IMG/VR virus record: IMGVR_UViG_3300050821_004478
From: a virus
Strand: one strand, 5' to 3'
DNA: 64,000 nucleotides
In this document: positions 2,471 to 63,460 of the stretch, piece by piece
Layout of the letters: every line of letters begins with the position of its first letter
How positions within the stretch are numbered: the first letter of the stretch is position 1
The notes under the pieces: generated by a model
What the model was told of the DNA's origin: nothing
Databases searched by the model: none
The model's input: the letters and a program-made list of their open reading frames with translations, nothing else
Translations under genes and position numbers: made by a program

Positions 2471-3115
2471 ATGATCGTATCGAAAATTCACTCCTGCCGT
2501 GGGCAGGAGGCCGTAGTTCTAGAAGAGAAAGAACCGCCAGCGCCGAAGTGTAACTGCAGACGTAAGATAACCGTCGCGGAGGCTACAGCCATCGTGAAGC
2601 GAGGCGAAGCCAAGTGGATTGTGAAATCACGTAAGCGAGGCGTTCGCCTAGTCGCCTGCTCTCACTGCAAGGGCGGTACAGAGATCAAAATCTGCGCCAA
2701 GTGCAGCGGAACCGGGAAACAAGAAGAGACATACGTCGAAGATATTCCCGGCACCGATATCGTTTACACGAGCGCCGATTCAGTAGATGAGAGCGAGAAG
2801 AAGAAGCGCAAGTGGCTCGCTCCGAAGACGCCTAGGGTGGCAACTGTAGAATCAAAACATATTGTGAGGGCATACGTGGACAAGGTACCGGAGGCCGCGA
2901 AGAGAATAGATCAATACGGCCTATTGATTGTGAAGGAACAATTGCGCATGCTGGCAGAGGGACTTACCAACGAAGAATTTGATGCGGCCTGGGCAGAATA
3001 TGCGGGTCTTGACGATGACTGCAGAGGCCATTTGCTGGTGCAGATAAGGATGGAGCCAGACAATAATGCGGCGCGCGGTGAAGGCCGAGATTACGATTTT
3101 GGGAGGACCATATGA
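2471..3115 (+). CDS. hypothetical protein with DnaJ-type zinc-finger motifs
   Basis: CSHCKGGT and CAKCSGTG give two CxxCxGxG motifs. Confidence 0.55.
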   Translation: MIVSKIHSCRGQEAVVLEEKEPPAPKCNCRRKITVAEATAIVKRGEAKWIVKSRKRGVRLVACSHCKGGTEIKICAKCSGTGKQEETYVEDIPGTDIVYTSADSVDESEKKKRKWLAPKTPRVATVESKHIVRAYVDKVPEAAKRIDQYGLLIVKEQLRMLAEGLTNEEFDAAWAEYAGLDDDCRGHLLVQIRMEPDNNAARGEGRDYDFGRTI

Positions 3116-3651
3116 TTAAGATCAACGTTGTGGGGGACGCTCAAAAAGCCATCAACGCAGTTCTTTTCGAAATCGCAGATCGCCCGTTTTCTGGTCGCCA
3201 TCCCGAACTAGGCAAGATGGTGAACTGCCAATTTTGCGATAGTCGCCACCGCAAGAATGAGCGCCAGTGCGAACAGGTTTTCACATACACTATCGGAGAC
3301 TACGAATATTTCCGAGAAGACGACAAGGGCGAGCTAGTCCCCGATTATCGCACCGCGACGCGCCCGGATGAGAAGCCGACTCGTGGGCAGGTTATGGGCC
3401 GCGCGTCCTTCGCGAGGAAGCGATTGAAGCCGCACCCATCTAAAATGAAGTTGCTGTTCATTCAAAAGACCCGGGAGGTCTTCTCTCAGCTTGAGTTCTC
3501 GCTAGACGACAAGGCAGCGAACTTTCAAGAGAACCTCCAACGCTGCCGGGTACTGGCCGCCCGCGACATCCGTAGGGAGCGCGAGTTTAAAGATCGCGCG
3601 GTACGGCGACGCGCAGATCGGTCTCGCCGCATCAACCTGGGACTGCTATGA
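3112..3651 (+). CDS. hypothetical basic protein
   Basis: ATGA start/stop overlap with the upstream gene; Arg-rich C-terminus. Confidence 0.55.
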   Translation: MIKINVVGDAQKAINAVLFEIADRPFSGRHPELGKMVNCQFCDSRHRKNERQCEQVFTYTIGDYEYFREDDKGELVPDYRTATRPDEKPTRGQVMGRASFARKRLKPHPSKMKLLFIQKTREVFSQLEFSLDDKAANFQENLQRCRVLAARDIRREREFKDRAVRRRADRSRRINLGLL

Positions 3652-3974
3652 GCGACTCTCTTCTCATTGTACCAATTGGAGTACCTCTTGACCCGCATCA
3701 AGATATAATCGGGAAGCACACGCACCTCTTTGCAAAGCGGGAGAATTTCACGCCGCCAACTAATGACGCACGAGATTGTATTTGCGGAGGCGGCAAGATT
3801 GGTGCTACGAGCCGCTCGTTGATCGCTAACTGCCCATGCTGCGACGGTGTGCAGCTTTTAGTTGTGGATACTTGTGATTGCGATGACCCGAGTTTCATCA
3901 AATTTCGAGCGGTACTGCCGCCTGATATGAAGATGAGAATCAGGCGCATTGAGACAGCGGAGCCGATATGCTAA
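3648..3974 (+). CDS. Cys-rich hypothetical protein
   Basis: ATGA overlap; CICGGG, CPCCDG and CDCDD clusters. Confidence 0.5.
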   Translation: MSDSLLIVPIGVPLDPHQDIIGKHTHLFAKRENFTPPTNDARDCICGGGKIGATSRSLIANCPCCDGVQLLVVDTCDCDDPSFIKFRAVLPPDMKMRIRRIETAEPIC

Positions 3975-4753
3975 AAGATATTACCATTGTCATTCCGACC
4001 TTCCACCGCCGAGGCTATCTGCGGGACTGTCTCGATGGGATTCAAAAGAACTTGCCTGAGTGTCAAGTGAGAATTGCGCAAGACGATGATGGCGACTGCA
4101 CGCTGGAACAAAGCGCATACAACACGTATTATTGGGCGAAGCTGCCGTACGACAGCGGTCTCACCGCGAAGCGCAACGCGGCGGTTAGATTAGTGGATAC
4201 GCAATATACATTAATGGGCAGCGATGACTTCGACTTTTCTACGCCAGAAGTACGAGAAGGTATCATCCGGATGGTCCGGATACTGAAATCATCCGAGATC
4301 GATATAGGGCGAGAGATCGACGTGGTCGCCGGAAGGGTCAATGACCGCTCTTACGAAGGATTCCTTGAGTACGTCCCAGGTGAGTATATCAAAGAGCACG
4401 CTCTTCGCAATGAACTTCCGTTCAGGTTGAAGCCGTTCGTGCTGTGGGAGATCGATATCGCTGCGAATTACTTCCTGGCCCGCACCGAAGTTCTACGAGC
4501 TATGCCGTGGGACGAGAGCATTAAGCCAATAGGAGGGGAACATGCGGATTGGTTCCTCGACTTAAAGGAAGCGGGCATGAAGGTAGTATTCTCATCGCCG
4601 TATGCAAATATCAATCAGATACCGTACGACGCGAGCAAGCAGCACCCGGATTACAACAAACTTCGCTGCCGCGCTGTTACGACCGGCCACGCGCTGATGA
4701 TGAAGAAGCGCAACATCAAGCACTACTACGGATTTGATGAGCAAGTAAAATAG
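3968..4753 (+). CDS. glycosyltransferase, GT2-like (GT-A fold)
   Basis: ITIVIPTFHRRGYL N-terminus and a GSDDFDF DxD-like motif. Confidence 0.6.
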   Translation: MLKDITIVIPTFHRRGYLRDCLDGIQKNLPECQVRIAQDDDGDCTLEQSAYNTYYWAKLPYDSGLTAKRNAAVRLVDTQYTLMGSDDFDFSTPEVREGIIRMVRILKSSEIDIGREIDVVAGRVNDRSYEGFLEYVPGEYIKEHALRNELPFRLKPFVLWEIDIAANYFLARTEVLRAMPWDESIKPIGGEHADWFLDLKEAGMKVVFSSPYANINQIPYDASKQHPDYNKLRCRAVTTGHALMMKKRNIKHYYGFDEQVK

Positions 4754-4761
4754 GAGGCAAC

Positions 4762-4959
4762 ATGAAGATCAAGAGACAGAAGAAAGTGAAGCCGATCACG
4801 ATTGGCTCGGTAGTTCAATTGAAGAGTGGCGGGTCGCTTATGACAGTGGTCAGCGCCGTCTCAAACCCTAACCCAATTCTCACCGTAATTTGGGAAGCCG
4901 ATGACTCACGTCTCGCGAAGTCCGAGATTCCCATTCAAGCACTTCGACTGGTGCGCTAA
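4762..4959 (+). CDS. DUF2158-like small protein
   Basis: GSVVQLKSGGSLMTVV resembles the YodC/DUF2158 signature; AGGAGG RBS. Confidence 0.55.
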   Translation: MKIKRQKKVKPITIGSVVQLKSGGSLMTVVSAVSNPNPILTVIWEADDSRLAKSEIPIQALRLVR

Positions 4960-5912
4960 TGGACCTCGTCCTTTTCCACCAAAATTGTCCTGATGGTTGG
5001 GCGGCGGCCTACATCTGCAAGATGAAGTATCCGGAAGCAGAACTGTTGCCGCTGAATCACGGTCTTAACGATAACCAGCTTAATTCGCTATTCAATATCT
5101 GCGCAGGCAAAGATGTCATCATGGTTGACTACTCGCTCCGCACTCGTGAGTTGAATGACCAACTAAATTTGGTCGCGAAATCGTTCCGCATCCTCGACCA
5201 CCACAAGACAGCCCAGGCTGCGCTCAACGGCGCAGAGTACGCCACATTCGACATGAAACGCTCGGGCGCGGGACTTGCGTGGGATTATCTCTTCGGCAAA
5301 GATTGTAAAGATCGTCCCGCTCAGAGTTTGGATAAACCGGGCGGCGTGATGTATATGTTTGAATCGCGTCCGTGGTGGGTGAACTACACCGAAGATCAAG
5401 ACCTCTGGAATTGGGCGTTGCCTGATTCACAACTCATCAACGCGTGGCTGATGGTTCAACCACGTACTATGGAAACGTGGGATATTATCCAAAACAAAAT
5501 TTCCGCAAACGACGCGCGACGCAGCGGTATGGGCGTCCGCGAATACATCGAATACTATACCCGCTCCGTAGTCGCGGAGGCGCAGGAAGGTGTGTTCGAA
5601 GGCTACAAGACTGGCGTACTAAACATCCCGTACGTCGGAGTAAGCGAGGCAGGCGCGGCGCTGATCGACAAGGGCTACGATATCGGCTTACTGTGGTTCG
5701 AACGCGGCGACGGTATCACGCAGTTTTCTCTCCGCAGCTTACACAGTGGCAACGTAGACGTGAGTGCAATTGCAAAGAAGTACGGGGGCGGCGGCCACGG
5801 AACAGCCGCAGGCTTCCAGCTATCTATGCCGGAAGGCCGCATTTTAGTTGACAAAATTCTGAATCGAATCACTTACACCACATTCGTTCAGCCAGGAGGA
5901 TGTGTAAAATGA
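4959..5912 (+). CDS. DHH/DHHA1-family phosphoesterase (NrnA/RecJ-like)
   Basis: HQNCPDG, MVDYS, LDHHKT (DHH) and GGGGHGTAAGF (DHHA1 GGGH) occur in order. Confidence 0.8.
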   Translation: MDLVLFHQNCPDGWAAAYICKMKYPEAELLPLNHGLNDNQLNSLFNICAGKDVIMVDYSLRTRELNDQLNLVAKSFRILDHHKTAQAALNGAEYATFDMKRSGAGLAWDYLFGKDCKDRPAQSLDKPGGVMYMFESRPWWVNYTEDQDLWNWALPDSQLINAWLMVQPRTMETWDIIQNKISANDARRSGMGVREYIEYYTRSVVAEAQEGVFEGYKTGVLNIPYVGVSEAGAALIDKGYDIGLLWFERGDGITQFSLRSLHSGNVDVSAIAKKYGGGGHGTAAGFQLSMPEGRILVDKILNRITYTTFVQPGGCVK

Positions 5913-6622
5913 CCTTACTCGTTGCTGTTAAGTCGTGCCGCGCTGACTTAGATCGCGGCTACCACGATGTGATTCGCGCGACCTGGGGCCAAGACTTGAG
6001 GAACCGAAACGTCTTAGTCCGGTTCTTCGTAGGTCATACCGGGGCGGATTATTTTCTAGCGCACCCCAAGGCCGACGCTCGGACGTTGAAGAGCGACGAG
6101 GTTGTCGCAGATAGCGCGGATGATTACGACGCGTTGCCTTTCAAGGTCCGCTCAATCTGTCATTGGGTGACCACCAAGAATATCGACCACGTTTTTCTCT
6201 GCGACACAGATACTTATGTGAATGCAAGCAGGCTTCTGACGTGCGGATATCGGAGATTTGACTATGCTGGTAAGATCAGCAAGCCAATTGGCGAAACTTT
6301 TCCTTACGACGCGGTTGACCGTCGCGGCGTTACTACGCATATCGCTGAGTGCCACCCGTGGGCTAGCGGTGGTTACGGTTACTTCCTATCTAGGGAGGCG
6401 ATGTTCTTGATCTCAGATTCTTATCCTAAGGGGTGGGCAGAAGACTTGTGGGTTGGACAAGTATTAGGGCCAGAATTCGCTAAGGGCGACATGCTCGCGC
6501 TCGATCTACCAGCGGGCGCTTACTCGCAGCACTTCCCGCAATTGAAGTACGGGTCCGGTTATGACCCGAAGCTGAAGTGGATGGAAGCTGCGCACCTAGT
6601 GAACAAGACGGTGAACGGATGA
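5909..6622 (+). CDS. glycosyltransferase, GT31-like (beta-1,3-Gal/GlcNAc-T or Fringe-like)
   Basis: LLVAVKSCRADL..IRATWG, DDYDALPFK, FLCDTDTYV (DxD), SGGYGYFLSR and EDLWVG. The start was chosen at the ATGA overlap after AGGAGGA. Confidence 0.7.
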   Translation: MTLLVAVKSCRADLDRGYHDVIRATWGQDLRNRNVLVRFFVGHTGADYFLAHPKADARTLKSDEVVADSADDYDALPFKVRSICHWVTTKNIDHVFLCDTDTYVNASRLLTCGYRRFDYAGKISKPIGETFPYDAVDRRGVTTHIAECHPWASGGYGYFLSREAMFLISDSYPKGWAEDLWVGQVLGPEFAKGDMLALDLPAGAYSQHFPQLKYGSGYDPKLKWMEAAHLVNKTVNG

Positions 6623-7305
6623 AGACCGCGCTTTTAGTTATAGCCACAGGAGAGCGATATCACCAGTATGTTAATCCACTGCTGGAGTCTGCTAAAGAAT
6701 TTTTCGTGGAGCACGACGCGTTCTTATGGGCGGACGAACTAATTCCCAGCATCGCGAAATTTCAACTTCAAAAGTATGCCTTGGGATTTCCAAACGAGAC
6801 GCTGTACAGATACCACACCTTCTTTGAACAGTATCAATTTCTTGAGAAGTACGACTACTTGTTTTACATCGACGTAGACATGCGATTCGTTGCCCCGGTA
6901 GGGGAGGAGATATTCTCTGATGGTATAACGGCCACGCTACATCCGGGCTATGTCGGCACACCGGGTACACCGGAGCGTCGCGCTGAGTCGATGGCAGTTA
7001 TTCCACAAGGAAGCAACAACAGGTATTTCTGCGGAGGTTTCAATGGCGGGACTTCGGGGCATTTTCTGCGCATGGCACAAGCTATAAAAGGAGCAGTCGA
7101 CGAAGATGCGAGTAGAGGAATCACAGCTATATGGCACGATGAATCGCACTTAAACAGATACCTATACTTGAATGGTCCAACGAAAGTTCTCGACCCGTCT
7201 TACTGCTACCCGGAGAACGCAGGTCCATACTACACAAGCAAGTGGAAGGCCGCAGGCTTGATTGTCACTCCAAAGATTCTGGCGTTAACCAAGGCGGGCA
7301 AATGA
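6619..7305 (+). CDS. glycosyltransferase family 6 (ABO / alpha-1,3-Gal(NAc) transferase-like)
   Basis: YIDVDMRF (DxD), TLHPGY, PERR, YFCGGFNGG and IWHDESHLNRYL..PTKVLDPSY mirror the catalytic motifs of vertebrate GT6 enzymes. ATGA overlap start. Confidence 0.9.
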   Translation: MKTALLVIATGERYHQYVNPLLESAKEFFVEHDAFLWADELIPSIAKFQLQKYALGFPNETLYRYHTFFEQYQFLEKYDYLFYIDVDMRFVAPVGEEIFSDGITATLHPGYVGTPGTPERRAESMAVIPQGSNNRYFCGGFNGGTSGHFLRMAQAIKGAVDEDASRGITAIWHDESHLNRYLYLNGPTKVLDPSYCYPENAGPYYTSKWKAAGLIVTPKILALTKAGK

Positions 7306-8081
7306 TTACAGTGAAGCTGATGGGCGGGATGGGCAATCAGATGTTTCAATACGCTATGGGACTGGCGGTGGCGCGTCGCCTCGATACTCGCGTCCAGCTT
7401 GATACATCCCTCCTGGGAGTCAATCGACCTCTTGCTCTCCATCAGTGGAATATAGATGCTCTCCAATTAGCGCCCCGTCACGCTGCCACCGTTCACGAAC
7501 AAGGCATGCGGTACAATCAGGCGACAGTGGATAGCATTAAGGACGGCGACGTTCTACAAGGCTATTGGCAGAGCGAAAAGTATTTCTACGACCCGGATGC
7601 ATTGCGCGGCGAGTTCACACCGCTGACTTGGTCTATCAGATCGCGGGATTTATTGAAACAAATTTTTCAAAGCAATTCAGTCGCAGTTCATGTTCGTCGC
7701 GGCGACTATCTGAATGAACCGCACAAGAGTTTTCACGGCATACTCTCAGATAAATACTACGCCGATGCTATGACGCGCATTTGGCACGAGCGTGGACTCA
7801 GTGCTCGATTTTTCATATTCTCCGACGACATAAAATGGGTGAAGAGCAATTTTTCTTCCGAACCATTCACCTTTGTGGAACCAGGCACCGAATCAGAAGA
7901 TATTTACCTGATGTCGATCTGCAACCACGCGATCATCGCTAACAGTTCTTTCTCGTGGTGGGGCGCGTGGTTGGGCGACAAGCAAAAGAACCGCACGGTG
8001 ATTGCTCCCGCAAAGTGGTTTGCTGACGGGTCGGGAGAAGACTACTCAGATATCGTACCGGAGCGATGGATTAAAATATGA
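7302..8081 (+). CDS. alpha-1,2-fucosyltransferase, GT11
   Basis: GGMGNQMFQYA, HVRRGDY and ANSSFSWWGAWL motifs; ATGA overlap start. Confidence 0.9.
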   Translation: MITVKLMGGMGNQMFQYAMGLAVARRLDTRVQLDTSLLGVNRPLALHQWNIDALQLAPRHAATVHEQGMRYNQATVDSIKDGDVLQGYWQSEKYFYDPDALRGEFTPLTWSIRSRDLLKQIFQSNSVAVHVRRGDYLNEPHKSFHGILSDKYYADAMTRIWHERGLSARFFIFSDDIKWVKSNFSSEPFTFVEPGTESEDIYLMSICNHAIIANSSFSWWGAWLGDKQKNRTVIAPAKWFADGSGEDYSDIVPERWIKI

Positions 8082-10156
8082 AGACCGCTGTCATCCTAGT
8101 CGCGACAGGCGAACGTTACGCAGGGCACATCGCGCCGATGATCGCATCTCTGAGAGATTTCTTCCCACCGTGCGATATACTCTTGTTCACCGACAGCAAA
8201 GATTCTTTTGACGCAATCAAGTTTGATTATCTGGACCTGGGATGGCCGGACGCTACCATGATGCGCTATCACGCCATCTACGAGCAGCGGGGCTTCCTGC
8301 TGGCGTATGACCACGTTTATTACATGGACGTGGACTTACGGGTCGTCAGCAAGATAGCACTCGACGAAATTTTTGCTGGCGGAATCACCGCAGTCCTACA
8401 TCCGGGTTTCCCGGAGGCTTGGGAGCGTCGCCCGCAATCTGCCGCTTACGTCGGCAATGGCTCCACATATTATCAAGGCTGCTTCGTTGGTGGAAGCACC
8501 GGCGCATTTCTTCACATGTGCGCCAGTATAAGCAAGAGCATCGACGCAGACAATGAGAAGGGAATTACCGCAGTCTGGTTCGATGAATCGCACTTGAATC
8601 GCTATCTGCACGACAACCCGCCTGGAAAGGTCTTATCTCCCGCCTACGCTTATCCGGAAGGCTGGACCGGGCTGGTCCCCAAGATTCAGCACTTAGAGAA
8701 GCCCGACCAGTCTTGGAAGGATAGCAACAAGATCGTCAGAGGCTTTTGGTCTGGTCCAGAATTAACGAACATCCAGAAACTGTGCATCCGCTCTTACATG
8801 CGGCACGGCCATGAGTTCCACTTGTATGTAACACAGCCAACGGAAGGCATCCCGAAGGGAACGGTAGTCAAAGATGCAAACGAGATTCTACCCAAGTCTA
8901 GATTAGCGGAGTTTGACAACAGCGTGCACTTCTGCGACTACTTTCGGGTCCTCCTGATCTTGAGAGAGGGCGGCTGGTATGTAGATTTGGATACGGTGTG
9001 CCTGCGCAAACTAGACTTCCCGGAGCCTTACGCCTTCGTATCAGAAGAGAAATTGGGCGCTCGTCGATCTCCCGATACGGATGTCATCCCATCTTCCGAC
9101 AAAGTCCAAGAGTATCTCAGCGGCTGCGTCTTCAAGGCACCGAAGGACGCGGAAGTTTTGAAGTACATTGCCAACAAGATCGAGAGCATGGATAAGATGC
9201 ACCCGGAAAGTTGGATATCCTTCGGCCCCGCGCTATTCAAAGAGGCCGTCCCGAAATTCGGGCTGAGCAAATATGTCAAGGCCCCGATAGTACTCGATGC
9301 CATGCGATATGATGAGATGCTGCACTTCGTATCTCCCGGACTCAAGCGATGGAATTTCACAGACCGGTCTTACTTGATTCACTTGAGAACATCTGCCTGG
9401 ACCGACGGCGCTTTGGTGCCTAATAAAATATATCACCCGAGGTCTTTGTTTGAAGAACTGAAGGTCCGAAACAGCGTAGAGACCCGAGTATCCATAGTGA
9501 TTCCTTGCTACAACATGAAGGAGTATTTGAAAGAGACCATCGAATCGGCCTTGGCGCAGACTTACAGAAACTTCGAAGTGATCGTGGTCGACGACGGCTC
9601 GATGGACAATGTTCACACAGTGTCCCAGCAGTTCGTAGATTCAATCGTGTGGATACGACAAGAAAACCAGGGACTGAATGTGGCCCGCAATACCGGAGCC
9701 AAGGCCGCCACAGGCGATTTGCTCCTATTCTTAGACGCTGACGACTTACTCGACTCCCACTATCTTGAGAAAACCGTGCCGCTTATGAAGGCAGGCGTCG
9801 GCATAGTCTCAACGGATATGCAGTACTTCGGGTTATCCGACCTGCGAATACCGACCGCCGAGACTTTGGAGCAGCAGAAAGTATCCAATCAGATGCCGTA
9901 CTGCCGCCTCATCCTTCGAGAGGCTTTCGAGCAGGCCGGTGGATACAGCATGAATCTGGATATCTGGGCCTACGGTGATTGGAATCTTTCCTTAGACATT
10001 TTGAAGCGAACTTGGAAGTGCGCTGTCCTGCATGAACCGTTATTCAAATACCGGATGCGCCCCGGCTCGATGAGGAGCATAGCGGGCCAGACTCATGAGC
10101 AGATGTGCGCAGCGATTCGAAGAAATCATCCAGACATATTCCCGGAGGGAAAGTGA
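8078..10156 (+). CDS. three-domain glycosyltransferase: GT6-like + GT32/Caps_synth-like + GT2
   Basis: aa 1-205 are paralogous to 6619..7305 (YMDVDLRV, LHPGF, ERRPQS, YYQGCFVGG, WFDESHLNRYL). The middle has FWSGPEL ... CDYFRVLLILREGGWYVDLD. The C-terminus has VSIVIPCYN ... VVDDGS ... LDADD. Confidence 0.85.
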   Translation: MKTAVILVATGERYAGHIAPMIASLRDFFPPCDILLFTDSKDSFDAIKFDYLDLGWPDATMMRYHAIYEQRGFLLAYDHVYYMDVDLRVVSKIALDEIFAGGITAVLHPGFPEAWERRPQSAAYVGNGSTYYQGCFVGGSTGAFLHMCASISKSIDADNEKGITAVWFDESHLNRYLHDNPPGKVLSPAYAYPEGWTGLVPKIQHLEKPDQSWKDSNKIVRGFWSGPELTNIQKLCIRSYMRHGHEFHLYVTQPTEGIPKGTVVKDANEILPKSRLAEFDNSVHFCDYFRVLLILREGGWYVDLDTVCLRKLDFPEPYAFVSEEKLGARRSPDTDVIPSSDKVQEYLSGCVFKAPKDAEVLKYIANKIESMDKMHPESWISFGPALFKEAVPKFGLSKYVKAPIVLDAMRYDEMLHFVSPGLKRWNFTDRSYLIHLRTSAWTDGALVPNKIYHPRSLFEELKVRNSVETRVSIVIPCYNMKEYLKETIESALAQTYRNFEVIVVDDGSMDNVHTVSQQFVDSIVWIRQENQGLNVARNTGAKAATGDLLLFLDADDLLDSHYLEKTVPLMKAGVGIVSTDMQYFGLSDLRIPTAETLEQQKVSNQMPYCRLILREAFEQAGGYSMNLDIWAYGDWNLSLDILKRTWKCAVLHEPLFKYRMRPGSMRSIAGQTHEQMCAAIRRNHPDIFPEGK

Positions 10157-11148
10157 AAATTCTCATCACAGGTGGCGCAGGATTTATTGCCGCGCATTTT
10201 GTCGATCATGTTTTGAAAACAACTGATTGGGACGTCGTCCTTCTCGACAAGTTAACGTACGCATCGAATGGTCTCCAGCGTTTAATGGAGATCGGTGCAT
10301 GGCCTAACAATCCGCGCGTCAAGATTCACGTTGCAGATGTCGCGAAACCGCTGGGCAAGTGCCTGGAGGCAGAGATCGGCCACATCGACTACCTGCTTCA
10401 CATGGCAGCTGGGACCCATGTCGACCGCTCGATTGCGTGTCCCCGCGACTTTGTGGAGGCGAATATCTTCGGAACCTTCGAGATGCTCGAATACGCCCGC
10501 CGCATCCCAGGACTCAAAAAGTTCTTCTACTTCTCGACCGACGAGGTCTTCGGGCCAGCCAAAGTTGGAGAGGCATTCAGAGAGTGGGACCGCTACAATT
10601 CGACCAATCCGTATTCCGCAACAAAGGCCGGTGGGGAGGAATTGGCACTGGCGTGGTCTAACACGTACGGCGTCCCCGTAATCATCAGCCACACGATGAA
10701 CGTTTATGGGGAGCGCCAGCATCCGGAGAAATTCATCCCACGGGTGGTCAGCGCACTTCTCAACGGAAGGACCCTCGATATCCACGTTGACCCGGTGACC
10801 GGCAATCCCGGCACAAGAAATTACCTACACTGCCAGGACGTGTCCGAGGCCGTCATGTTTTTATTGGAGCGTGGACTGAACCGTGAGAAGTACAATATCA
10901 CAGGAATGCAAGAGTATTCGAATTTGCATGTCGCTAGAGTGATCGCGAAAGTCCTAGGAAGGGAACTAGCTTATCGCGAGATTTACCCTCAAACGATTCG
11001 CCCCGGCTTCGACGTTCGATACGGTATGGACGGCAGCAAGCTGGCCGCGATGGGATGGATGCCATCGAAAAGCCTTGACACCAATCTCAAAAATACGGTA
11101 GAGTGGATGGTGCGAGCAGAAAACAGGCATTGGCTGTATTTGAAGTGA
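10153..11148 (+). CDS. NAD-dependent sugar-nucleotide 4,6-dehydratase (RmlB / dTDP-glucose 4,6-dehydratase-like SDR)
   Basis: GTG start in a GTGA overlap after GGAGGGA. Motifs ITGGAGFIAAHF, KLTYASN, STDEVFG and YSATKAGGE. Confidence 0.8.
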   Translation: MKILITGGAGFIAAHFVDHVLKTTDWDVVLLDKLTYASNGLQRLMEIGAWPNNPRVKIHVADVAKPLGKCLEAEIGHIDYLLHMAAGTHVDRSIACPRDFVEANIFGTFEMLEYARRIPGLKKFFYFSTDEVFGPAKVGEAFREWDRYNSTNPYSATKAGGEELALAWSNTYGVPVIISHTMNVYGERQHPEKFIPRVVSALLNGRTLDIHVDPVTGNPGTRNYLHCQDVSEAVMFLLERGLNREKYNITGMQEYSNLHVARVIAKVLGRELAYREIYPQTIRPGFDVRYGMDGSKLAAMGWMPSKSLDTNLKNTVEWMVRAENRHWLYLK

Positions 11149-11364: not shown

Positions 11365-11874
11365 ATGGCGGACTTCAATCAGGCGGTGCAGAAGACTTTA
11401 ATCAACGAGGGCGGTTTCCAAAACATCCACGGCGACAGCGGCAACTGGACCGGGGGCGAGGTCGGCAAGGGCGAACTGAGGGGCACGAAATATGGTATCA
11501 GCGCCGCCGAATTCCCCAACCTCGACATCTTCAATCTGACCCAAGATCAGGCCATCCAGATTTACCGGGAAGGCTATTGGAAGGATGGTTACTCTCAGAT
11601 CACTGATCAATTGCTGGCTGACAAACTATTCGACCTGGGTGTTCTCTTCGGCGTCGGGGAGGCCGTGAAGCTGCTACAAATCACAATGGCCAACAAGATC
11701 AGCTTAGTCACCGATGGTGAGTTTGGTCTCGGCACGCTATCGGCGGTGAACCAGTCCGCAAATCTGCTGCCCGCTTACAAGACCACGTTCATCAATCACT
11801 GCATGAATATCATCAACCACAATCCGGCGAAGGCACAGTTCGCGAATAATTGGGTACGTAGGATTAATTCGTGA
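11365..11874 (+). CDS. endolysin: GH108 N-acetylmuramidase domain plus PG_binding_3-like domain
   Basis: LINEGGF..DSGNWTGG..GTKYGIS and C-terminal FGLGTLSAVN; AAGGAGG RBS. Confidence 0.85.
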   Translation: MADFNQAVQKTLINEGGFQNIHGDSGNWTGGEVGKGELRGTKYGISAAEFPNLDIFNLTQDQAIQIYREGYWKDGYSQITDQLLADKLFDLGVLFGVGEAVKLLQITMANKISLVTDGEFGLGTLSAVNQSANLLPAYKTTFINHCMNIINHNPAKAQFANNWVRRINS

Positions 11875-13273: not shown

Positions 13274-14497
13274 ATGAAAAAGACCATCCTAGCATTAGTT
13301 TTTCTCGCATTTGCATCGCCCGCGTTCGCGTGGAATTGTAGCGACCCGCTTGCATCACGCGTCCCGGTAGTATCTGGCACGTCCGGTTCCTTCGGGAATG
13401 GAGACGGCCAACTGTTCCTTGGCACAGGTAGCGAAGGAACGAAAGGACAACTATACCAATGTCAAGTTCCGAAACCACCGGTAACACCGCCAACACCGCC
13501 TACGGTCAATCAATCGCAGAATCAGACGCAGAACTCCTCCGCAAACTCAAATGCGACTTCGAATTCCAGCGCGAATTCGAAATCTACCTCCAGCGTAACG
13601 GGGGGCAACTCGACAAGTACATCCACAGGTGGCTCCGCGACAGCTACGGGCGGGTCTTCGGTGGTGAAGAACAGTGGCAATTCCATATTGACCAACTCAG
13701 GGAATTCATCCAATACAAACAATACCACAGCAAACGGTGGTACGGGAGGTTCCGCGAGTTCATCAAACAATTCTGCCGGTAATGTCACCAGCTTCGTCGA
13801 CAATCAGGTCCGCCAGACGCCGATGGCATACGCTCCGGACGCGGCCTTCACCACGTCACCGTGCGTGAAAGGCTTCTCAGGTGGCGTATCTCTCCCGGGT
13901 GGCGCAGGCAGTCTAGGGGTGAGCAAGACCGACAAGGGTTGCGATTCCCGACAGACCGCAGTTGTTTTCTACGCACTCGGCAACAAGACCGCAGCGGCGA
14001 GGATACTTTGCAGCAGCGATGCTGCCAGACGCGCCAAGCTGACCTTGGATGATTGCCTAGCTATCGTGGTTCCGCCAGTCCCCCAGATCGTGGTCCCACA
14101 GCCCCCAGCAGCCCCTCAGCCGCAGGTTATCGTTGTACCAGCCCCACAACCCGTTCTGGCCCCGATAGCAGCCCAGCCGTCCCCAGACTGCAATCAGCCC
14201 AAGGCGGTTCCGGTTCACTATACCCGGGTCTGCAAGGCCAGTACCAAGATCGCGACTATCGGCTTTTGCAAACTTCACAACAGCATCCCAGACCCCGGCT
14301 GCTACGTAATTCTAGACGAAGCCGTGGGCGCAATTGGGGTAAATAATAATGCAAGAATTGTCTTGACAGGCCCGGTGGAATCTGGTAGAGTGGTCTTGTA
14401 CTTGAAACAGCACAAGATCAGTTTGAACCAGATCACCTTGAAGCTGGCAGACGATCAGAACGGGACGCTTACCGTCCAGACAGAGATCGGAGAGTAA
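13274..14497 (+). CDS. secreted Ser/Thr/Asn-rich (mucin-like) and Pro-rich protein
   Basis: MKKTILALVFLAFASPAFA signal peptide after a GAAAGAGG RBS. A ~130-aa S/T/N/G tract has many N-x-S/T triplets, followed by a P-rich tract VVPPVPQIVVPQPPAAPQPQ. Confidence 0.7.
   Translation: MKKTILALVFLAFASPAFAWNCSDPLASRVPVVSGTSGSFGNGDGQLFLGTGSEGTKGQLYQCQVPKPPVTPPTPPTVNQSQNQTQNSSANSNATSNSSANSKSTSSVTGGNSTSTSTGGSATATGGSSVVKNSGNSILTNSGNSSNTNNTTANGGTGGSASSSNNSAGNVTSFVDNQVRQTPMAYAPDAAFTTSPCVKGFSGGVSLPGGAGSLGVSKTDKGCDSRQTAVVFYALGNKTAAARILCSSDAARRAKLTLDDCLAIVVPPVPQIVVPQPPAAPQPQVIVVPAPQPVLAPIAAQPSPDCNQPKAVPVHYTRVCKASTKIATIGFCKLHNSIPDPGCYVILDEAVGAIGVNNNARIVLTGPVESGRVVLYLKQHKISLNQITLKLADDQNGTLTVQTEIGE
14363..14391 (+). 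promoter_or_regulatory. sigma-70-like promoter (TTGACA-17-TAGAGT)
   Basis: Consensus -35 with a 17-nt spacer, upstream of 14499. Confidence 0.45.
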
Positions 14498-19271: not shown

Positions 19272-19300
19272 TTGACAAACTTTCCGAACTGTGAGAGACT
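19272..19300 (+). promoter_or_regulatory. weak sigma-70-like promoter (TTGACA-17-GAGACT) ahead of the integrase
   Basis: Consensus -35 but a poor -10. Confidence 0.3.
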
Positions 19301-19320
19301 TGGTGCATGGAGAAAACAAG

Positions 19321-20220
19321 ATGACGTTTCAATCACAGGCTGAGACTTTCATGTCTGAAATTGCCCTTCGCAAAAGTGACCCCGCGAAAGTGAACACTTT
19401 GCGCGTCTATCGCTCCATCATCGACTTCCGTCTCCTACCTGCCATCGGCGGGCTGGAATTGCAGGAGGTCAACAACCGAACTGTCAAGGTACTCGTTGGC
19501 CGTCTCGCAGAGGCTGATCTGAGTCCCGCCACCATAACCTTGGCAGTCAGTCTCGTGAAGCAGGTTGTCAAGTCTGCGGTAGACGACGAAGGAAATCAAC
19601 TTTATCCCAGAACGTGGAATACCCGCTTTATCGACGCCCCGAAGATCGACAAATCAGCCCAGAGGACCCCAATTGCCACATCCCTGGCGCTGGGAGGCGC
19701 TGTGGCAGCCGTAAGGGGCGAAGTGGGGGGATTAGTGGCCCTCCTGGCTGGGACCGGCCTACGGGTCGGGGAGGCCCTTGCCATGCATAAGATCGACGAC
19801 GGGGTGTCCAACTATTGGGACCCGGCAGCCGGGACCATCGCGGTACGCGCGACCCTGGTCAACGGCAAGTTGCAAGACTCCACCAAGACCAAGGCCGGGA
19901 CCCGTATCGTGGACTTAGACCCGGCACTGAATAGCCTCCTGCATTCGGTATTCGCGATTCGCGATTCAAAAATATTTGTATCCTCGGAGCGCACTCTTCG
20001 CCGCCGCATAGAAGAACTCGGGCTAGAAGGTTTTCACTCCATGCGCCGCTTCCGCATCACCCACCTGCAAGCCGCGAGCGTCCCCGCGACCCTGGTGAAG
20101 TTTTGGGCCGGTCACGCGGCGGGCGATGTTTCTGAAAGATACACAAAATTTGGGGAGCAGATTATGGTCAGAAAAACATGGGCCGATAAGGCAGGTTTGG
20201 GGTTCGATCTTCATGCGTAA
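19321..20220 (+). CDS. int: tyrosine recombinase / phage integrase
   Basis: TGLRVGEAL (Arg I), HSMRRFRITHL (HxxR) and AGHAAGDVSERY (His/Tyr). ATG 19321 follows GGAGAAAACAAG. Confidence 0.9.
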   Translation: MTFQSQAETFMSEIALRKSDPAKVNTLRVYRSIIDFRLLPAIGGLELQEVNNRTVKVLVGRLAEADLSPATITLAVSLVKQVVKSAVDDEGNQLYPRTWNTRFIDAPKIDKSAQRTPIATSLALGGAVAAVRGEVGGLVALLAGTGLRVGEALAMHKIDDGVSNYWDPAAGTIAVRATLVNGKLQDSTKTKAGTRIVDLDPALNSLLHSVFAIRDSKIFVSSERTLRRRIEELGLEGFHSMRRFRITHLQAASVPATLVKFWAGHAAGDVSERYTKFGEQIMVRKTWADKAGLGFDLHA

Positions 20221-21521: not shown

Positions 21522-22349
21522 TTATAGTTTCGATGAAGAAAATTGGTAAGGTTCGAAGTCTCTCGCGTACTGATCGGTAGGCTTCACCGTCGCTAGCAAG
21601 TAGCGGGCGCGCTCAATTCTCTTCCCCAGGTCCGCCTCGTTGTTCTGGTAGATGTCCAAGCTGCCGTATCCTCGAAATCCTACATGCGCGCATACCGGCG
21701 TCTCCGGATACACGCAAGACATCCCCTCCTGCTTCATCACCCGTCTAATCAGCCAATCGTCCAGCGTTGAAACCTCCCACGGCGGGAAGTGTTTGTCGCA
21801 GTATGCCTTTGTGTCTTGGAAATATTCAGAGTTGATGTGTGGGACCAGGGCATCGAGGAGAGGTCTGCGAAGACAAGAACCCGGGTTACAATAAAGGTCT
21901 CTGTATTGCCAACGGAGATCGGGATGTTTGCGGCCACAAGAAGCTGCAACCTTATTAGATTGCTCTGGCCCAATACAACCTTTAATGGCTGACCGATGCC
22001 ACGTAAAAAATGTCTGAGGATACACGAGTACATCTTCTTCAATCAGCCAGCAACGCTCGGCTCCGGTTTCGTATCCGGCTTTTAGAGACATCAAAATGTT
22101 GTAGGTACCGGAGGCGACTTTAGTGTGGGGCTTGGCGTGAAAAATCTGCGCTCTAGGAAGATACTTGTCTCGGACATATTCTACCTCGGCCACCCGCATC
22201 TCAGGAGACGTATCTAGAAAGATTCGGACGTCGTCAGGGGCATTGATAGCTTGTTCAAGTTTTTCAAGACACAGTGCTAATAACTCGGGCCGCGCAAAAG
22301 TTGGTATTACAATAATCTCGCTCAATGTGGCCTCCCGGACATCGGGCAT
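21522..22349 (-). CDS. glycosyltransferase-like protein (GT-A fold, GT2-like)
   Basis: IIVIPTFARPELLALCLEKL N-terminus; LIEEDV acidic motif. Confidence 0.5.
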   Translation of the reverse strand: MPDVREATLSEIIVIPTFARPELLALCLEKLEQAINAPDDVRIFLDTSPEMRVAEVEYVRDKYLPRAQIFHAKPHTKVASGTYNILMSLKAGYETGAERCWLIEEDVLVYPQTFFTWHRSAIKGCIGPEQSNKVAASCGRKHPDLRWQYRDLYCNPGSCLRRPLLDALVPHINSEYFQDTKAYCDKHFPPWEVSTLDDWLIRRVMKQEGMSCVYPETPVCAHVGFRGYGSLDIYQNNEADLGKRIERARYLLATVKPTDQYARDFEPYQFSSSKL

Positions 22350-22783
22350 TTTTTCTTGTTACTTTTACCACCGGGGCCATTACAGTTATTACAAAGAACT
22401 TGATACCCTTTGGGATATCTGTTTTTTCTGAGAAAATTTAAGAGAGCACAGCTAGAAATTCTTCTGCCGTTCTTTCCCAGATGTTTATAACCATTGCCTT
22501 TGATGTGATCTAGTTGTAGAAAGCCAAAATAAATTGTTCGGCACCCTAGGCACATGCATTTCAATTTACCTTTACTATAGTATGTAAGCACATCTCGACG
22601 CAATCGCGACGCAGCTTCTCGCACTGATCTATTTATAATTTTTCTGTATTGGGGATTTTTTCTGCGATCTCGCATGCGCAAACGGCCATATCTTCTGCTG
22701 CGATAAAGGACACAGTCATCACAATATTTCTTAGTGTTGTGATAACTTCTTCTGATTGATTTTCTGCATCTTAAGCATTCCAT
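22322..22783 (-). CDS. HNH endonuclease
   Basis: LQLDHIKGNG ... VLCNNCN with flanking Cys pairs. Confidence 0.75.
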   Translation of the reverse strand: MECLRCRKSIRRSYHNTKKYCDDCVLYRSRRYGRLRMRDRRKNPQYRKIINRSVREAASRLRRDVLTYYSKGKLKCMCLGCRTIYFGFLQLDHIKGNGYKHLGKNGRRISSCALLNFLRKNRYPKGYQVLCNNCNGPGGKSNKKKCPMSGRPH

Positions 22784-22796
22784 TTTCTTTCTCCTG

Positions 22797-22834
22797 AATA
22801 GAAAGAGGCCGGAAGCGATTCAGGCGCTCCCGGC
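22797..22834 (-). terminator. rho-independent terminator-like hairpin directly upstream of the HNH gene
   Basis: On the minus strand, GCCGGGAGCG-n7-CGCUUCCGGC is followed by CUCUUUCUAUU. Confidence 0.5.
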
Positions 22835-22922
22835 TCATTGCTTCATGAAACAAATTCTTCATCGAAACCAGAAAAACCTCATTTATGAACGCCGATGACA
22901 TAAAAACATCATCGACAAAGTT

Positions 22923-23111
22923 TTACCGAGATCGGCTTAATTCTTTCTGTCCGCCCTCGACCTTCGGCATCCCTTCTTTCTGAAACTTCTGTGGGTCAAA
23001 GTCGTCGAACGCTGCATCCCACTTCTTATCCGGTACGCTGATGTTCGCTGTGAACTGCGCTCGTATTGAGCCACGAGCTAAAGCATCGCCACCACCAATA
23101 TTATTCAGCAT
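22923..23111 (-). CDS. hypothetical protein (62 aa)
   Basis: ORF overlaps the upstream gene end. Confidence 0.45.
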   Translation of the reverse strand: MLNNIGGGDALARGSIRAQFTANISVPDKKWDAAFDDFDPQKFQKEGMPKVEGGQKELSRSR

Positions 23112-23692
23112 TTGATTTTCTCCTTTTCTATATATTCTCCGTGCTTAGGTGCAAACGTCTTACAAAGTTTTCCCGATTCAATCAAGCCAACTACTTGATT
23201 ACAGGCTCGACAAAGTAGGCATCGAACGCATGAGCCACAAGATTCGTCTCCATTGTTACAGCATGTATGGTCGTGGTCGACACAAAGACGCTCAATAGTT
23301 TCCGGTTTCTTACAGATGGCGCAAACAACTTCCCCGTCAGAGTTGGTTTGACGTTTTCTCATTGACAAAAGACGATCTATGGATAAGCCGAATCTTGAAA
23401 CTTGAAGAAGCAATCGCTTCCATCCCCTAGGTCCACCATTCTCTTTAACACACTGAGCGCAATTCACCGGGTGTTGACGACCATGTGTATAATGCGGAGC
23501 TATAAATTCGTGACCGTTCGCCTCGCATCTTAATACAGGAACCCAATTCTTTTGAGAGTTATCCCAGCATTTAACCGCTCGCCCCGTGTAGACCGCGTGC
23601 AAGCCTCCATTAAGCCGAATGCGCGTTCCTCGTAGTTTCCCGATGCTATCTGTGGCACGGGCTTTCATTCTTGTTATTTGACGATTATTCAT
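23105..23692 (-). CDS. endonuclease VII-type (HNH superfamily) nuclease
   Basis: CAICKKP ... CVDHDH ... CLLCRACNQVVG. The start was chosen at ATG 23692, overlapping the upstream stop; the ORF stays open to 23761. Confidence 0.7.
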   Translation of the reverse strand: MNNRQITRMKARATDSIGKLRGTRIRLNGGLHAVYTGRAVKCWDNSQKNWVPVLRCEANGHEFIAPHYTHGRQHPVNCAQCVKENGGPRGWKRLLLQVSRFGLSIDRLLSMRKRQTNSDGEVVCAICKKPETIERLCVDHDHTCCNNGDESCGSCVRCLLCRACNQVVGLIESGKLCKTFAPKHGEYIEKEKIKC

Positions 23693-23867
23693 TTTCTGCG
23701 TCTGTGCCTTTCTTCCTTGCGGCCAAAATCTTATCTGCGAATTCGGCTCTACTCTCGGCAACCGCGCCGAGTAGCTCGTGAAGCTGGGGCAGCTTGCCCG
23801 CAGCGTGCAAACGCTCTACTTCCGCTTGGAAGTCTGAGGGTCCGTATTTCTTCTCTTTCTCGCTCAT
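23685..23867 (-). CDS. hypothetical protein (60 aa)
   Basis: AGGA RBS; first gene after the promoter at 23884..23912. Confidence 0.5.
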   Translation of the reverse strand: MSEKEKKYGPSDFQAEVERLHAAGKLPQLHELLGAVAESRAEFADKILAARKKGTDAENE

Positions 23868-23883
23868 ATTAATCCTCTAAACC

Positions 23884-23912
23884 AGTGTATCACAAGGATG
23901 TGCCCTTGTCAA
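23884..23912 (-). promoter_or_regulatory. sigma-70-like promoter (TTGACA-17-TACACT)
   Basis: Sits between the stop of the 1972-aa gene and the 60-aa ORF. Confidence 0.55.
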
Positions 23913-23922
23913 GCGTTATTTC

Positions 23923-49801: not shown

Positions 49802-50006
49802 CTTGTTAACACTTTCGTGTACCGAATCATTTCTGTTCGGTTCATACGGTTTGTTTCCCGTATGTTCAGACTATTGCATCGACCTATTGTCAGAAGGTCG
49901 TTTTCTCGCTTAGTCGTTCACGGTGCCTTTCGGCTTCCGCCTCGTTGCCGTTTCAGGTTTCGAGTCAATCAGAGAAAATTTACTGTGGCCTATGCTGTTA
50001 AGCCAC
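49802..50006 (-). ncRNA. structured RNA element, copy 2 (unclassified); its first helix spans the capsid stop codon
   Basis: Same architecture as copy 1; a 37-nt core is identical between the copies. Confidence 0.6.
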
Positions 50007-63129: not shown

Positions 63130-63204
63130 TGGTTGCCTGATTTGGATTCGGACCAAAACTTCCGCTTTCAGAGAGCGGCGTGCTACCGGTTGCACTATCT
63201 GGCA
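63130..63204 (-). tRNA. tRNA-Gln(CUG)
   Basis: Manual cloverleaf of 7/4/5/5 bp with anticodon loop CUCUGAA and an encoded CCA. There is one A:A mismatch at 5:68, and the T-loop is UCCGAAU. Confidence 0.7.
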
Positions 63205-63377: not shown

Positions 63378-63385
63378 ATAGAAAC

Positions 63386-63459: not shown

Positions 63460-63460
63460 A

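Follow-up and report, generated by a model that had tools for sequence, protein, structure and literature searches.

The 64,000-nucleotide stretch analysed here (IMG/VR record IMGVR_UViG_3300050821_004478; hereafter the window) carries on its plus strand an operon, spanning 3112-11148, that encodes seven glycosyltransferase (GT) domains together with one nucleoside-diphosphate (NDP)-hexose 4,6-dehydratase. The window comes from a metagenome contig of 101,738 bp (ENA ERZ27253726, k141_2126788), and the same phage is present in at least three other samples. Comparison with related contigs showed that the operon is an accessory, rapidly changing and hypervariable sugar island, in which enzymes of families GT31, GT11 and GT6 occur together in a nested manner. 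Based on these families, the island may build a branched, fucosylated glycan resembling blood-group H/A/B structures, and we tentatively favour a lipid-linked envelope precursor of the host as its carrier.

A translationally coupled operon for seven glycosyltransferase domains

Gene calls and junction sequences showed that the genes from 3112 to 11148 form an uninterrupted string, with consecutive genes joined by four-nucleotide ATGA or GTGA overlaps or separated by gaps of at most 8 nt, and that a 52-nt gap separates this string from the downstream lysis genes. An initial annotation, made from the sequence alone, had described a single translationally coupled operon beginning at 3968. The coupling was borne out, and the operon was found to start further upstream, at 3112 with the gene for p179, and to include the gene for the Cys-rich protein p108 from 3648. 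The transferase and dehydratase genes in that annotation lie where it had placed them, and profile searches confirmed their families with the exception of the first enzyme (see below); two genes inside the operon, encoding a DUF2158 protein and a DHH/DHHA1 protein, had been overlooked. The true starts of four genes are at 5909, 6619, 7302 and 10153, longer GTG open reading frames (ORFs) not being real starts. Pfam scores exceeded the gathering score for GT31, both GT6 domains, GT11, Gly_transf_sug and GT2. No membrane segment was found in the cluster proteins, none of which has a hydrophobic 19-mer with a Kyte-Doolittle mean above 1.5. Promoter and terminator scans gave counts no higher than the shuffled expectation and were thus uninformative on the limits of the operon. 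The genes are as follows.

3112-3651, plus strand: p179, first gene of the string and left edge of the island site, present in 33 of the 37 related phage loci counted below; stop/start ATGA overlap with the next gene; no Pfam or PHROG match
3648-3974, plus strand: p108, Cys-rich protein of 108 amino acids, translationally coupled to the first transferase; no family match
3968-4753, plus strand: putative GT-A transferase, B4GALNT1-like (GT12-like), from profile, model and Foldseek
4762-4959, plus strand: small DUF2158 protein (Pfam PF09926, 32 bits)
4959-5912, plus strand: DHH/DHHA1 phosphoesterase of NrnA-like size (Pfam DHHA1, 30.8 bits)
5909-6622, plus strand: GT31-like enzyme of the beta-1,3-galactosyl/N-acetylglucosaminyl (Gal/GlcNAc) transferase type (Pfam Galactosyl_T, orthologue profile)
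6619-7305, plus strand: GT6a, minimal metal-dependent (DXD) GT6 (PF03414, 117.3 bits)
7302-8081, plus strand: GT11 of the alpha-1,2-fucosyltransferase type (PF01531, 118.6 bits)
8078-10156, plus strand: 692-amino-acid fusion of GT6b, GT32-type and GT2 domains (three Pfam domains, model)
8078-8707, plus strand: GT6b, N-terminal domain of the fusion (PF03414, 84.2 bits)
8708-9475, plus strand: GT32-type domain (Gly_transf_sug), middle of the fusion (PF04488, 31.3 bits)
9476-10156, plus strand: GT2, C-terminal domain of the fusion (PF00535, 118 bits)
10153-11148, plus strand: RmlB-like NDP-hexose 4,6-dehydratase of the short-chain dehydrogenase/reductase type, last gene of the island (TIGR01181, 268 bits)
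11365-11874, plus strand: GH108 endolysin, right edge of the island site (PHROG_315, 7.8e-28; Pfam Glyco_hydro_108)

Family assignment of the single-domain enzymes

The product of 3968-4753 had been annotated as GT2-like, a label that did not hold, its Pfam GT2 match being sub-threshold (17.7 against 23.3 bits). A profile built from 10 orthologues matched human B4GALNT1 (E 4.7e-18), and the AlphaFold model (pLDDT 93.9) had B4GALNT1 as its best Foldseek match (E 5.5e-17, TMq 0.73), the runner-up family reaching 1.4e-10, six orders behind. An S-D-D segment (residues 85-87) is invariant and the D at position 89 nearly so. We therefore class the predicted enzyme as GT12-like (CAZy GT12: B4GALNT1/2 and CgtA), a label taken from its nearest relatives by profile and modelled structure.

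Among the Pfam-based calls, that of GT31 is the weakest: Galactosyl_T (PF01762) scored 39.6 bits (gathering score 23), with only profile positions 4-105 of 195 aligned, and the single sequence had no match in the PDB. The call was reinforced by a profile of 14 orthologues, all significant PDB matches of which are GT31 structures, led by B3GALT5 (2.5e-10) and followed by B3GNT2, C1GALT1 and B3GLCT, in agreement with the beta-1,3 type initially annotated. In its DTD segment, D99 and D101 are invariant. For GT11, PF01531 scored 118.6 against 23.9 bits over profile positions 30-295 of 298. The sequence HVRRGDY at 140-146 preserves the HxRRGDY motif, which we take to be diagnostic of GT11 and to bind guanosine diphosphate (GDP)-fucose.

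For the dehydratase (10153-11148), the best NCBIfam match was TIGR01181, dTDP-glucose 4,6-dehydratase, followed by GalE (92 bits) and Gmd (28 bits). Because its score of 268 bits lies below the equivalog cut-off of 365, the protein is designated only as an RmlB-like NDP-hexose 4,6-dehydratase, as in the initial annotation, and dTDP specificity is not assigned. STDEVFG (128-134) and YSATK (154-158) contain T-D-E and YxxxK, presumably the catalytic motifs of 4,6-dehydratases. A 72% identical copy adjoins a stand-alone GT2 gene, similar to the C-terminal domain of the fusion protein, in unrelated viral contigs (L039, L042, L185 and L188), which suggests, as a lead, that the dehydratase and GT2 may form a submodule transferring a 6-deoxyhexose.

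Two GT6 domains and a three-domain fusion protein

Both GT6 domains were well above the gathering score of 25 bits for PF03414 (GT6a 117.3, GT6b 84.2). GT6a matched BoGT6a (5e-33) and human GTA/GTB (about 1e-28) in the PDB and contains the motifs DVD (85-87), YFCGGFNGG and WHDES, in line with the closeness to vertebrate ABO transferases noted at first. GT6b contains DVD (84-86), YYQGCFVGG and WFDES, and its domain model matched BoGT6a in Foldseek (TMt 0.74-0.81, E about 1e-15; pLDDT of the fusion model 71.8, medium confidence). Alignment to BoGT6a and GTB showed that the DXD and the catalytic Glu (E303 of GTA, E192 of BoGT6a) are kept in both. Prokaryotic GT6 enzymes comprise a minimal DXD clade and an NXN, membrane-tailed Bacteroides type (PMC3516806). 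By their motifs, both domains are assigned to the minimal metal-dependent clade of prokaryotes and phages (P-SSM2 and PaGT6 type), distinct from the Bacteroides type.

The donor-site triplets, whose variable positions govern the choice of donor in the human enzymes, are C-G-G in GT6a and Q-G-C in GT6b, compared with L-G-G in GTA, M-G-A in GTB and A-G-G in BoGT6a. Across phage loci, two subtypes recur, C/A-G-G and Q-G-C, the latter also in unrelated phages. By analogy with the known triplets, GT6a could take N-acetylhexosamine (HexNAc) and GT6b an unsubstituted hexose. As for the acceptor, Trp356 of alpha3GalT excludes 2'-fucosylated acceptors (PMC3516806), and alignment of the C-terminal tails placed apparently Val in GT6a and Leu in GT6b at this position. 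PaGT6, a metal-dependent minimal enzyme of the DXD type, transfers GalNAc to H-type acceptors only (PMC3516806).

The 692-aa protein had been described as a second GT6 fused to GT32-like and GT2 domains, and its architecture was recovered by Pfam (84, 31 and 118 bits), with GT6 at residues 56-206, Gly_transf_sug (GT32-type) at 279-313 and GT2 at 472-597. The fusion model likewise has three GT-A domains. The GT32-type domain scored 31.3 against 23 bits for PF04488, which all 15 of its 15 aligned homologues also match, two of them matching Gb3_synth as well; its PDB profile matches are weak (SetA 9e-5, Och1 1e-3, YeGT 1.3e-3), and in its DLD segment (fusion residues 303-305) the two Asp residues, D94 and D96 of the domain alignment, are invariant. 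For the GT2 domain, the PDB matches were chondroitin synthase (4e-23) and GalT1 (3e-20), and the nearest folds were a Leptospira GT (6p61, TMt 0.85) and WrtF (TMt about 0.7), a GT2-family alpha-1,4-fucosyltransferase of rhizobial O-polysaccharide. In most relatives the GT2 domain is a stand-alone gene.

A pattern search of IMG/VR with the fusion protein as direct query returned no relatives; the same architecture was found in four further metagenome proteins with 72-78% identity. Other natural fusions are GT31+GT6+GT32+GT2, GT6+GT32, GT6+GT2, GT6+GT31, GT32+GT2 and GT32+O-methyltransferase. Such fusions are Rosetta-stone evidence that the joined domains may act in one pathway. Furthermore, bacterial proteins of about 669 aa (P0072-P0108), one cluster of which has 380 sequences, fuse a Wzx-type flippase (Polysacc_synt) to GT6, an arrangement of which we found no mention in the GT6 literature consulted for comparison.

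Linkage, nested content and turnover of the island

Relatives were reached from anchors in GT11, GT6, the PD-(D/E)XK exonuclease, GT31 and the major capsid protein, the best 80 loci being kept in the GT11, GT6 and capsid scans. With GT11 as the anchor, IMG/VR yielded 225 relatives; GT6 and GT31-like genes accompany GT11 in many of the best 80, and contigs of about 100 kb among them share the gene order PD-(D/E)XK exonuclease, p214, p179, island, lysin. With GT6 as the anchor, 431 relatives were found; GT11 lies within 10 kb in 67 of the best 80 and a GT31-like gene in 24, and among the best loci outside the clade of the window phage, a GT31-like gene is near GT6 in 14 of 70. The GT6-anchored scan of 185,579 cellular species genomes gave 248 relatives with identities of up to 46%, mostly from metagenome-assembled genomes (MAGs) of Dependentiae, Chlamydiota, Verrucomicrobiota, Planctomycetota and Pseudomonadota. 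Among the best 80 of these, GT11 is nearby (within 10 kb) in 31 and a GT31-like gene in 3, two of the three being mis-binned phage contigs of the clade. Both partners of GT6 thus show a viral bias (67/80 against 31/80 for GT11; 24/80 against 3/80 for the GT31 type).

The two apparently mis-binned contigs (L094, CABMCB010000059.1, 99.9 kb; L100, CABMCB010000010.1, 57.7 kb) are filed in the MAG "uncultured archaeon isolate LFW-28". They encode the PD-(D/E)XK exonuclease with 56-71% identity as well as GT31, GT6 and GT11, and L100 additionally encodes the GT12-like enzyme, the DHH protein and the lysin.

The exonuclease-anchored scan of IMG/VR gave 39 clade contigs, of which 37 extend 9 kb or more downstream and were counted. 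In these 37 loci, GT31 is present in 21, the GT12-like gene in 19, GT11 in 18, GT6 in 10 and DHH in 21. The content is nested: every locus with GT6 also has GT11 (10/10), and every locus with GT11 also has GT31 (18/18), GT31 being able to stand alone. Among island-bearing loci, the nesting of GT6 within GT11 is in itself statistically not strong, with a probability of about 0.12 by a simple hypergeometric calculation, and the loci are phylogenetically related. If GT6 needs fucose, such nesting would be expected for an order of action from a GT31-made acceptor through GT11 fucosylation to GT6, and it is consistent with this order, not proof of it. The cluster is not a chance arrangement, because it is kept in dozens of related contigs.

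The island occupies the site between p179 and the lysin in 21 of the 37 loci, and in island-less relatives the spacing between the two is 0.5-2 kb. The relative with the most similar backbone (capsid 97%, exonuclease 83% identical) retains just a single, divergent GT31-like gene. A simple presence or absence at this site had to be corrected as a description, since three contigs that seemed island-less carry GT31+GT11 elsewhere; relocated clusters of this kind, with none at the p179-lysin site, occur in at least three contigs. Six contigs of 82-119 kb have no GT31-type gene in any scan. Larger islands were found in two relatives, L008 and L015, with a true Gmd (430 bits), RmlD-like, Polysacc_synt_2, C-methyltransferase, DegT aminotransferase, 3,5-epimerase and split E1/transketolase genes; their Gmd occupies the position of the dehydratase.

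An unrelated 52-kb phage (IMGVR_UViG_3300025446_000011 and relatives, L088-L090), which recurs in 124 blocks of the collection, has a cluster encoding GT2, GT11, two unknown proteins, a GT6/GT31 fusion and a polysaccharide pyruvyl transferase; immediately upstream are several genes for C5 DNA methyltransferases and one for a Vsr endonuclease.

A proposed glycan and its carrier

From the families, motifs, linkage and island turnover described above, we infer a possible product, whose individual sugars, linkages, order of synthesis and carrier are all predicted from genes. The seven transferase domains and the dehydratase would constitute a soluble cytoplasmic assembly line. A HexNAc-bearing primer would receive a beta-1,3-linked Gal from the GT31-like enzyme, GT11 would alpha-1,2-fucosylate this Gal with GDP-fucose of the host, and GT6a and GT6b would cap the fucosylated Gal in alpha-1,3 linkage, GT6a probably with HexNAc and GT6b probably with an unsubstituted hexose. 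The B4GALNT1-like, GT32-like and GT2 domains would add branches, for which GT2 may use a 6-deoxyhexose derived from the dehydratase. The result would be an oligosaccharide of H/A/B-like type, branched and fucosylated. As its carrier we favour, with rather less than even confidence, a host-supplied envelope precursor, undecaprenyl-diphosphate (undecaprenyl-PP)-HexNAc, on which the glycan would be flipped and ligated onto the envelope by host machinery. The surface of the infected cell would thereby be changed, resulting in receptor masking or superinfection exclusion.

This proposal is supported by the GT6-GT11 linkage, the nested content, the domain fusions and the precedent of PaGT6 for H-type acceptors. 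The initial annotation had already seen the enzymatic logic of ABH synthesis (GT31, then GT11, then GT6) in the operon; at the genomic level, families, motifs, linkage in 67 of 80 loci, nesting and fusions agree with it, and two of the points raised below, the NCBIfam name of the GT6 domains and the lack of a GDP-fucose pathway, do not. To our knowledge, every characterised bacterial GT6 and GT11 acts on lipid-linked glycans. The Wzx-GT6 fusions suggest that bacterial GT6 acts on flippase substrates and, by analogy, tie GT6 to the export of undecaprenyl-PP-linked glycans. In L008 and L015, Gmd fits a GDP-6-deoxyhexose donor for GT11. A carrier supplied by the host would also explain the absence of a phage priming enzyme, flippase and polymerase: as initially noted, none of these is encoded in the island, which is devoid of membrane segments, and no Polysacc_synt or Wzy family appears in the precomputed Pfam tables, which span 81 kb of the 102-kb contig; this part, with additional probes, is the scope of all contig-wide negatives given here.

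Several points weigh against this proposal. The same absence of flippase, polymerase, priming enzyme and membrane segment is a weak point of the ABH reading. Both GT6 domains have as their best NCBIfam match NF041524, named "family 6 glucosyltransferase" (149.6 and 125.3 bits, below the cut-off); no experimental basis for this name was found in the literature searched. No Gmd- or RmlD-like gene, and hence no GDP-fucose pathway (Gmd/Fcl), was detected in the 81 kb, so fucosylation would rely on GDP-fucose of the host. There is no sign of lysogeny, and the benefit of a surface change during a lytic cycle is unclear. Known seroconversion modules consist of one to three genes, membrane proteins included; seven GT domains, together with the rare-sugar pathways of relatives, far exceed these and look more like the virion glycosylation of giant viruses and mycobacteriophages. 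Finally, the BHB tail, by which GT6 enzymes of the Bacteroides type bind membranes, is lacking in the phage GT6 clade (PMC3516806).

Alternative acceptors and products

The foremost alternative, which we consider possible though somewhat doubtful, is that the same assembly line acts on a protein, be it a capsid, decoration, fibre or exported phage protein, so that the particle would be coated with glycan; the initial annotation had also named decoration of a phage or host protein as a possibility. The seven transferase domains are all soluble, and among the natural fusions are soluble multi-domain transferases with up to four domains; such soluble fusions resemble the capsid-glycosylating enzymes of chloroviruses. 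The GT32-type domain is distantly similar to the protein-glycosylating effectors SetA and YeGT, the relatives add rare-sugar pathways (Gmd, aminotransferase, C-methyltransferase, 3,5-epimerase), and the island takes up to about 7-14 kb of a 100-kb genome. It lies directly 5' of the lysis genes and is co-directional with them, and an exported, mucin-like, Ser/Thr/Asn-rich protein of 407 aa is encoded 2 kb downstream. The lack of a membrane-binding tail in the phage-type GT6 clade also speaks for this alternative (PMC3516806), and virions glycosylated by phage transferases are known (Freeman et al. 2023, as cited in PMC12619734 and PMC12801897).

On the other hand, no protein-priming transferase was identifiable, close relatives with a 76-97% identical capsid have a reduced island or none, and no protein of the head module co-varies with island status. 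The Ser/Thr-rich protein has no counterpart in the fetched loci of relatives, and the lipid-linked substrates of the characterised bacterial GT6 and GT11 enzymes also argue against a protein acceptor. A bolder form of this alternative, which we regard as unlikely, is a self-contained phage protein-glycosylation system making a mucin- or ABH-like fucosylated O-glycan on the virion or on the exported Ser/Thr-rich protein, with environmental phages, in place of bacteria, as the main reservoir and shuttle of the animal-type families GT6, GT11, GT31, GT12 and GT32 in the prokaryotic world.

About equally unlikely, in our estimate, is that the families are right and the product is not ABH-like, with GT11 using another GDP-6-deoxyhexose, GT6 transferring glucose and the GT31-like enzyme forming another linkage. 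The NCBIfam glucosyltransferase name points in this direction, as do the C-G-G and Q-G-C triplets, which equal those of no characterised enzyme, the RmlB-like dehydratase found in place of GDP-fucose genes, and the Pfam GT31 match, which spans the first half of the profile only. In L015, Gmd, the DegT aminotransferase and the 3,5-epimerase would lead to GDP- or dTDP-linked rare sugars. Against this, the tight GT6-GT11 linkage and the nesting of GT31, GT11 and GT6 are what an H-dependent GT6 predicts, the GDP-fucose-binding motif of GT11 is intact, and the only minimal GT6 of the DXD type that has been assayed needs H-type acceptors (PMC3516806).

It is very improbable that the glycan is placed on a hydroxymethylated base of the phage DNA as an anti-restriction hypermodification. 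Phage transferases do put mono- to trisaccharides on 5-hydroxymethylcytosine (bioRxiv 10.1101/2023.12.21.572611). The island follows genes for PrimPol, UvrD and PD-(D/E)XK on the same strand, and several C5 DNA methyltransferases are encoded close to the GT11-GT6/GT31 cluster of the unrelated phage described above. Yet neither a ThyA-like hydroxymethylase nor a TET/5mYOX enzyme nor a C5-methyltransferase was found in the 81 kb (Pfam tables, ThyA probe), GT6, GT11 and GT31 are sugar-to-sugar enzymes, and the island is missing from close relatives. We know of no glycan of at least seven sugars on DNA.

Lysogenic seroconversion, in which a prophage would express the island and alter the O-antigen serotype of the host, had been suggested initially on account of an integrase, and we likewise give it very little credence. 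The sole integrase candidate is a 309-aa ORF (19291-20220, plus strand) whose N-terminal and catalytic parts weakly resemble tyrosine recombinases, with both matches below threshold (Pfam 21.1 against 27.1 bits; PDB E 0.059); the distantly related phage Tunturi_3 is annotated with an integrase (PMC11924767). Against seroconversion, no integrated relative occurs among the 80 best GT6 loci of the 185,579 species genomes, a scan that clade members without GT6 escape; the sole clade loci there are two free phage-sized contigs without flanking host genes in the fetched stretches. The genome of about 100 kb has its own primase, helicase and tRNAs, and the island is devoid of the membrane proteins that known modules include.

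Comparison with known systems

Among the closest known counterparts is the glycan ("LPS/cell-surface") cluster of cyanomyophage P-SSM2, which encodes Gmd, epimerases, GT2, GT1, GT11, GT6 and GT25 in overlapping genes, as in the window island. Both have GT6 (37% identical) and GT11 (31%) a few genes apart, short-chain dehydrogenase/reductase sugar-nucleotide enzymes and a minimal DXD GT6. Unlike the island, the P-SSM2 cluster has no GT31-like, B4GALNT1-like or GT32-like enzyme and no domain fusion, and it has Gmd; P-SSM2 is a 252-kb marine T4-like myophage, whereas the window belongs to a podophage of about 100 kb from metagenomes, with relatives reported from soils. In discussing the origin of the vertebrate GT6 family, PMC3516806 takes the GT6 of P-SSM2 as a model for its ancestor.

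Escherichia coli O86, a mimic of blood group B to which the operon had been compared at first, encodes a GT2-family beta-1,3-Gal transferase, a GT11 and a GT6 alpha-1,3-Gal transferase (WbnH/J/K/I) together with Wzx, Wzy and GDP-fucose genes. The analogy stands for the enzyme logic of beta-1,3-Gal transferase, GT11 and GT6. It fails for the remainder, since the island has no Wzx, Wzy or Gmd/Fcl, uses a GT31-type in place of a GT2 enzyme and has four extra transferase domains. With PaGT6 of Parachlamydia and BoGT6a of Bacteroides ovatus, the phage GT6 domains share the catalytic core, the catalytic Glu and apparently a small residue at the site admitting a 2'-fucose; BoGT6a differs from them in its membrane-binding tail and in having NXN for DXD. 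Among cellular proteins, the nearest homologues of the phage GT6 come from MAGs of Dependentiae, Chlamydiota and Verrucomicrobiota, and a GT31-like neighbour is almost never found with cellular GT6.

Che8-type mycobacteriophages, chlorovirus and mimivirus resemble the island in having soluble, partly multi-domain transferases, sugar-nucleotide enzymes and variable content, as far as described in PMC4691112 and for Freeman et al. 2023 in PMC12801897. These systems use other transferase families, and no structural protein co-varies with the island here.

GT6 and GT11 in phages are not new, being known from the P-SSM2 annotation and from soil viromes. A 2025 soil-virome study reported both as phage auxiliary genes, with phages accounting for 50-100% of their coverage (PMC12016548); it counted genes and read them, from pathway maps, as glycosphingolipid synthesis, without operon structure, partners, fusions or island dynamics. 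In addition, a prophage GT11 makes 2'-fucosyllactose in vitro (2025; PMC12748750). We found no prior description of the GT31-, B4GALNT1- and GT32-type additions, the two GT6 subtypes, the triple-domain fusion, the nested content, the mobile hypervariable island in soil podophages or the viral bias of GT31-GT6-GT11.

Implications

If the proposed product is correct, phages of soil bacteria would make H/A/B-like fucosylated glycans far from vertebrates, with enzymes homologous to the human ABO, FUT, B3GALT and B4GALNT families. The viral linkage bias, together with the soil coverage attributed to phages, indicates that phages may rank among the major reservoirs and vectors of these families. Such a reservoir is relevant to the long-standing proposal that vertebrates acquired GT6 from a prokaryote or phage by transfer, and the protein-glycosylation reading, if true, would likewise matter for the proposal that the vertebrate ABO family has a horizontal origin. 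The island is also an enzyme resource for glycan synthesis, offering compact, soluble GT6 (metal-dependent), GT11, GT31 and GT12-like enzymes as well as natural multi-domain fusions. Moreover, nearly identical backbones with full, reduced, relocated and absent islands amount to a natural experiment, the comparison of which could show what purpose large glycan islands serve in lytic phages, a question that dates back to the cyanophage genomes of 2005.

Phage backbone and other genes

The window is phage DNA, as seen from its virion, replication/recombination and lysis genes. The minus strand encodes an SU10-type portal, the large terminase, the major capsid protein (49990-50925) and other virion proteins, and the plus strand encodes PrimPol/DUF3987, UvrD, the PD-(D/E)XK exonuclease and the GH108 endolysin. 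The phage is a lytic-looking podophage of about 100 kb, and its GH108 endolysin points to a host of the diderm type, bounded by an outer membrane. The major capsid protein has 148 relatives in IMG/VR, of which the 80 kept are 76-97% identical; with so many capsid relatives, this clade of soil podophages of about 100 kb is abundant. No DNA nearly identical to the window was found in INPHARED. Structural proteins of Tunturiibacter phage Tunturi_3 are distantly related (portal 35%, major capsid protein 37%, large terminase 27% identity); this is a 97.6-kb podovirus of 51% GC from tundra soil with an Acidobacteriota host (PMC11924767). Since the relatedness is confined to the structural genes and no transferase cluster is annotated, Tunturi_3 was rejected as a close relative carrying a comparable island.

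Three proteins of the operon, DHH, p108 and DUF2158, vary independently of the transferases across the clade. p108 is more conserved than the transferases (62-74% identity in relatives), adjoins DHH in place of a GT gene in some of them, and is possibly a zinc-binding protein. The DUF2158 gene occurs in only 6 of the 37 clade loci, and its product is not a glycosylation enzyme. The DHH protein has the motifs DHH (80-82) and GGGH (276-279) and marginal similarity in the PDB. A role in the pathway, for example as a hydrolase of nucleotide by-products, was ruled out by its presence without transferases at the site in seven clade contigs (L266, L268, L270, L271, L278, L287 and L290); it is probably an operon passenger, a nucleotide or oligonucleotide phosphoesterase unrelated to glycosylation.

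Beyond the lysis genes, 2 kb 3' of the island, a plus-strand gene (13274-14497) encodes the exported 407-aa protein mentioned above. It has a Sec signal peptide (MKKTILALVFLAFASPAFA, followed by W), a Pro-rich hinge, a mucin-like stretch of about 110 residues rich in Ser, Thr, Asn and Gly with many NxS/T sequons, and then a Cys-containing C-terminal domain. Possible roles for the protein are those of a glycan acceptor and of a surface moron; as a conserved acceptor it is unsupported, given the lack of a counterpart in the fetched loci of relatives.

The phage has three tRNA genes, Gln-CTG, Gln-TTG and Ser-GCT, in a group of minus-strand features (63130-63977, 23105-23761 and 59114-59695) that also includes Endonuclease VII ORFs, the Endonuclease VII domain being carried by two separate ORFs of the window. 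At 22000-24000, where the early/lysis block on the plus strand meets the virion block on the minus strand, GC content falls to 0.456 and the GC skew flips sign, so that this could be a regulatory or replication-related region.

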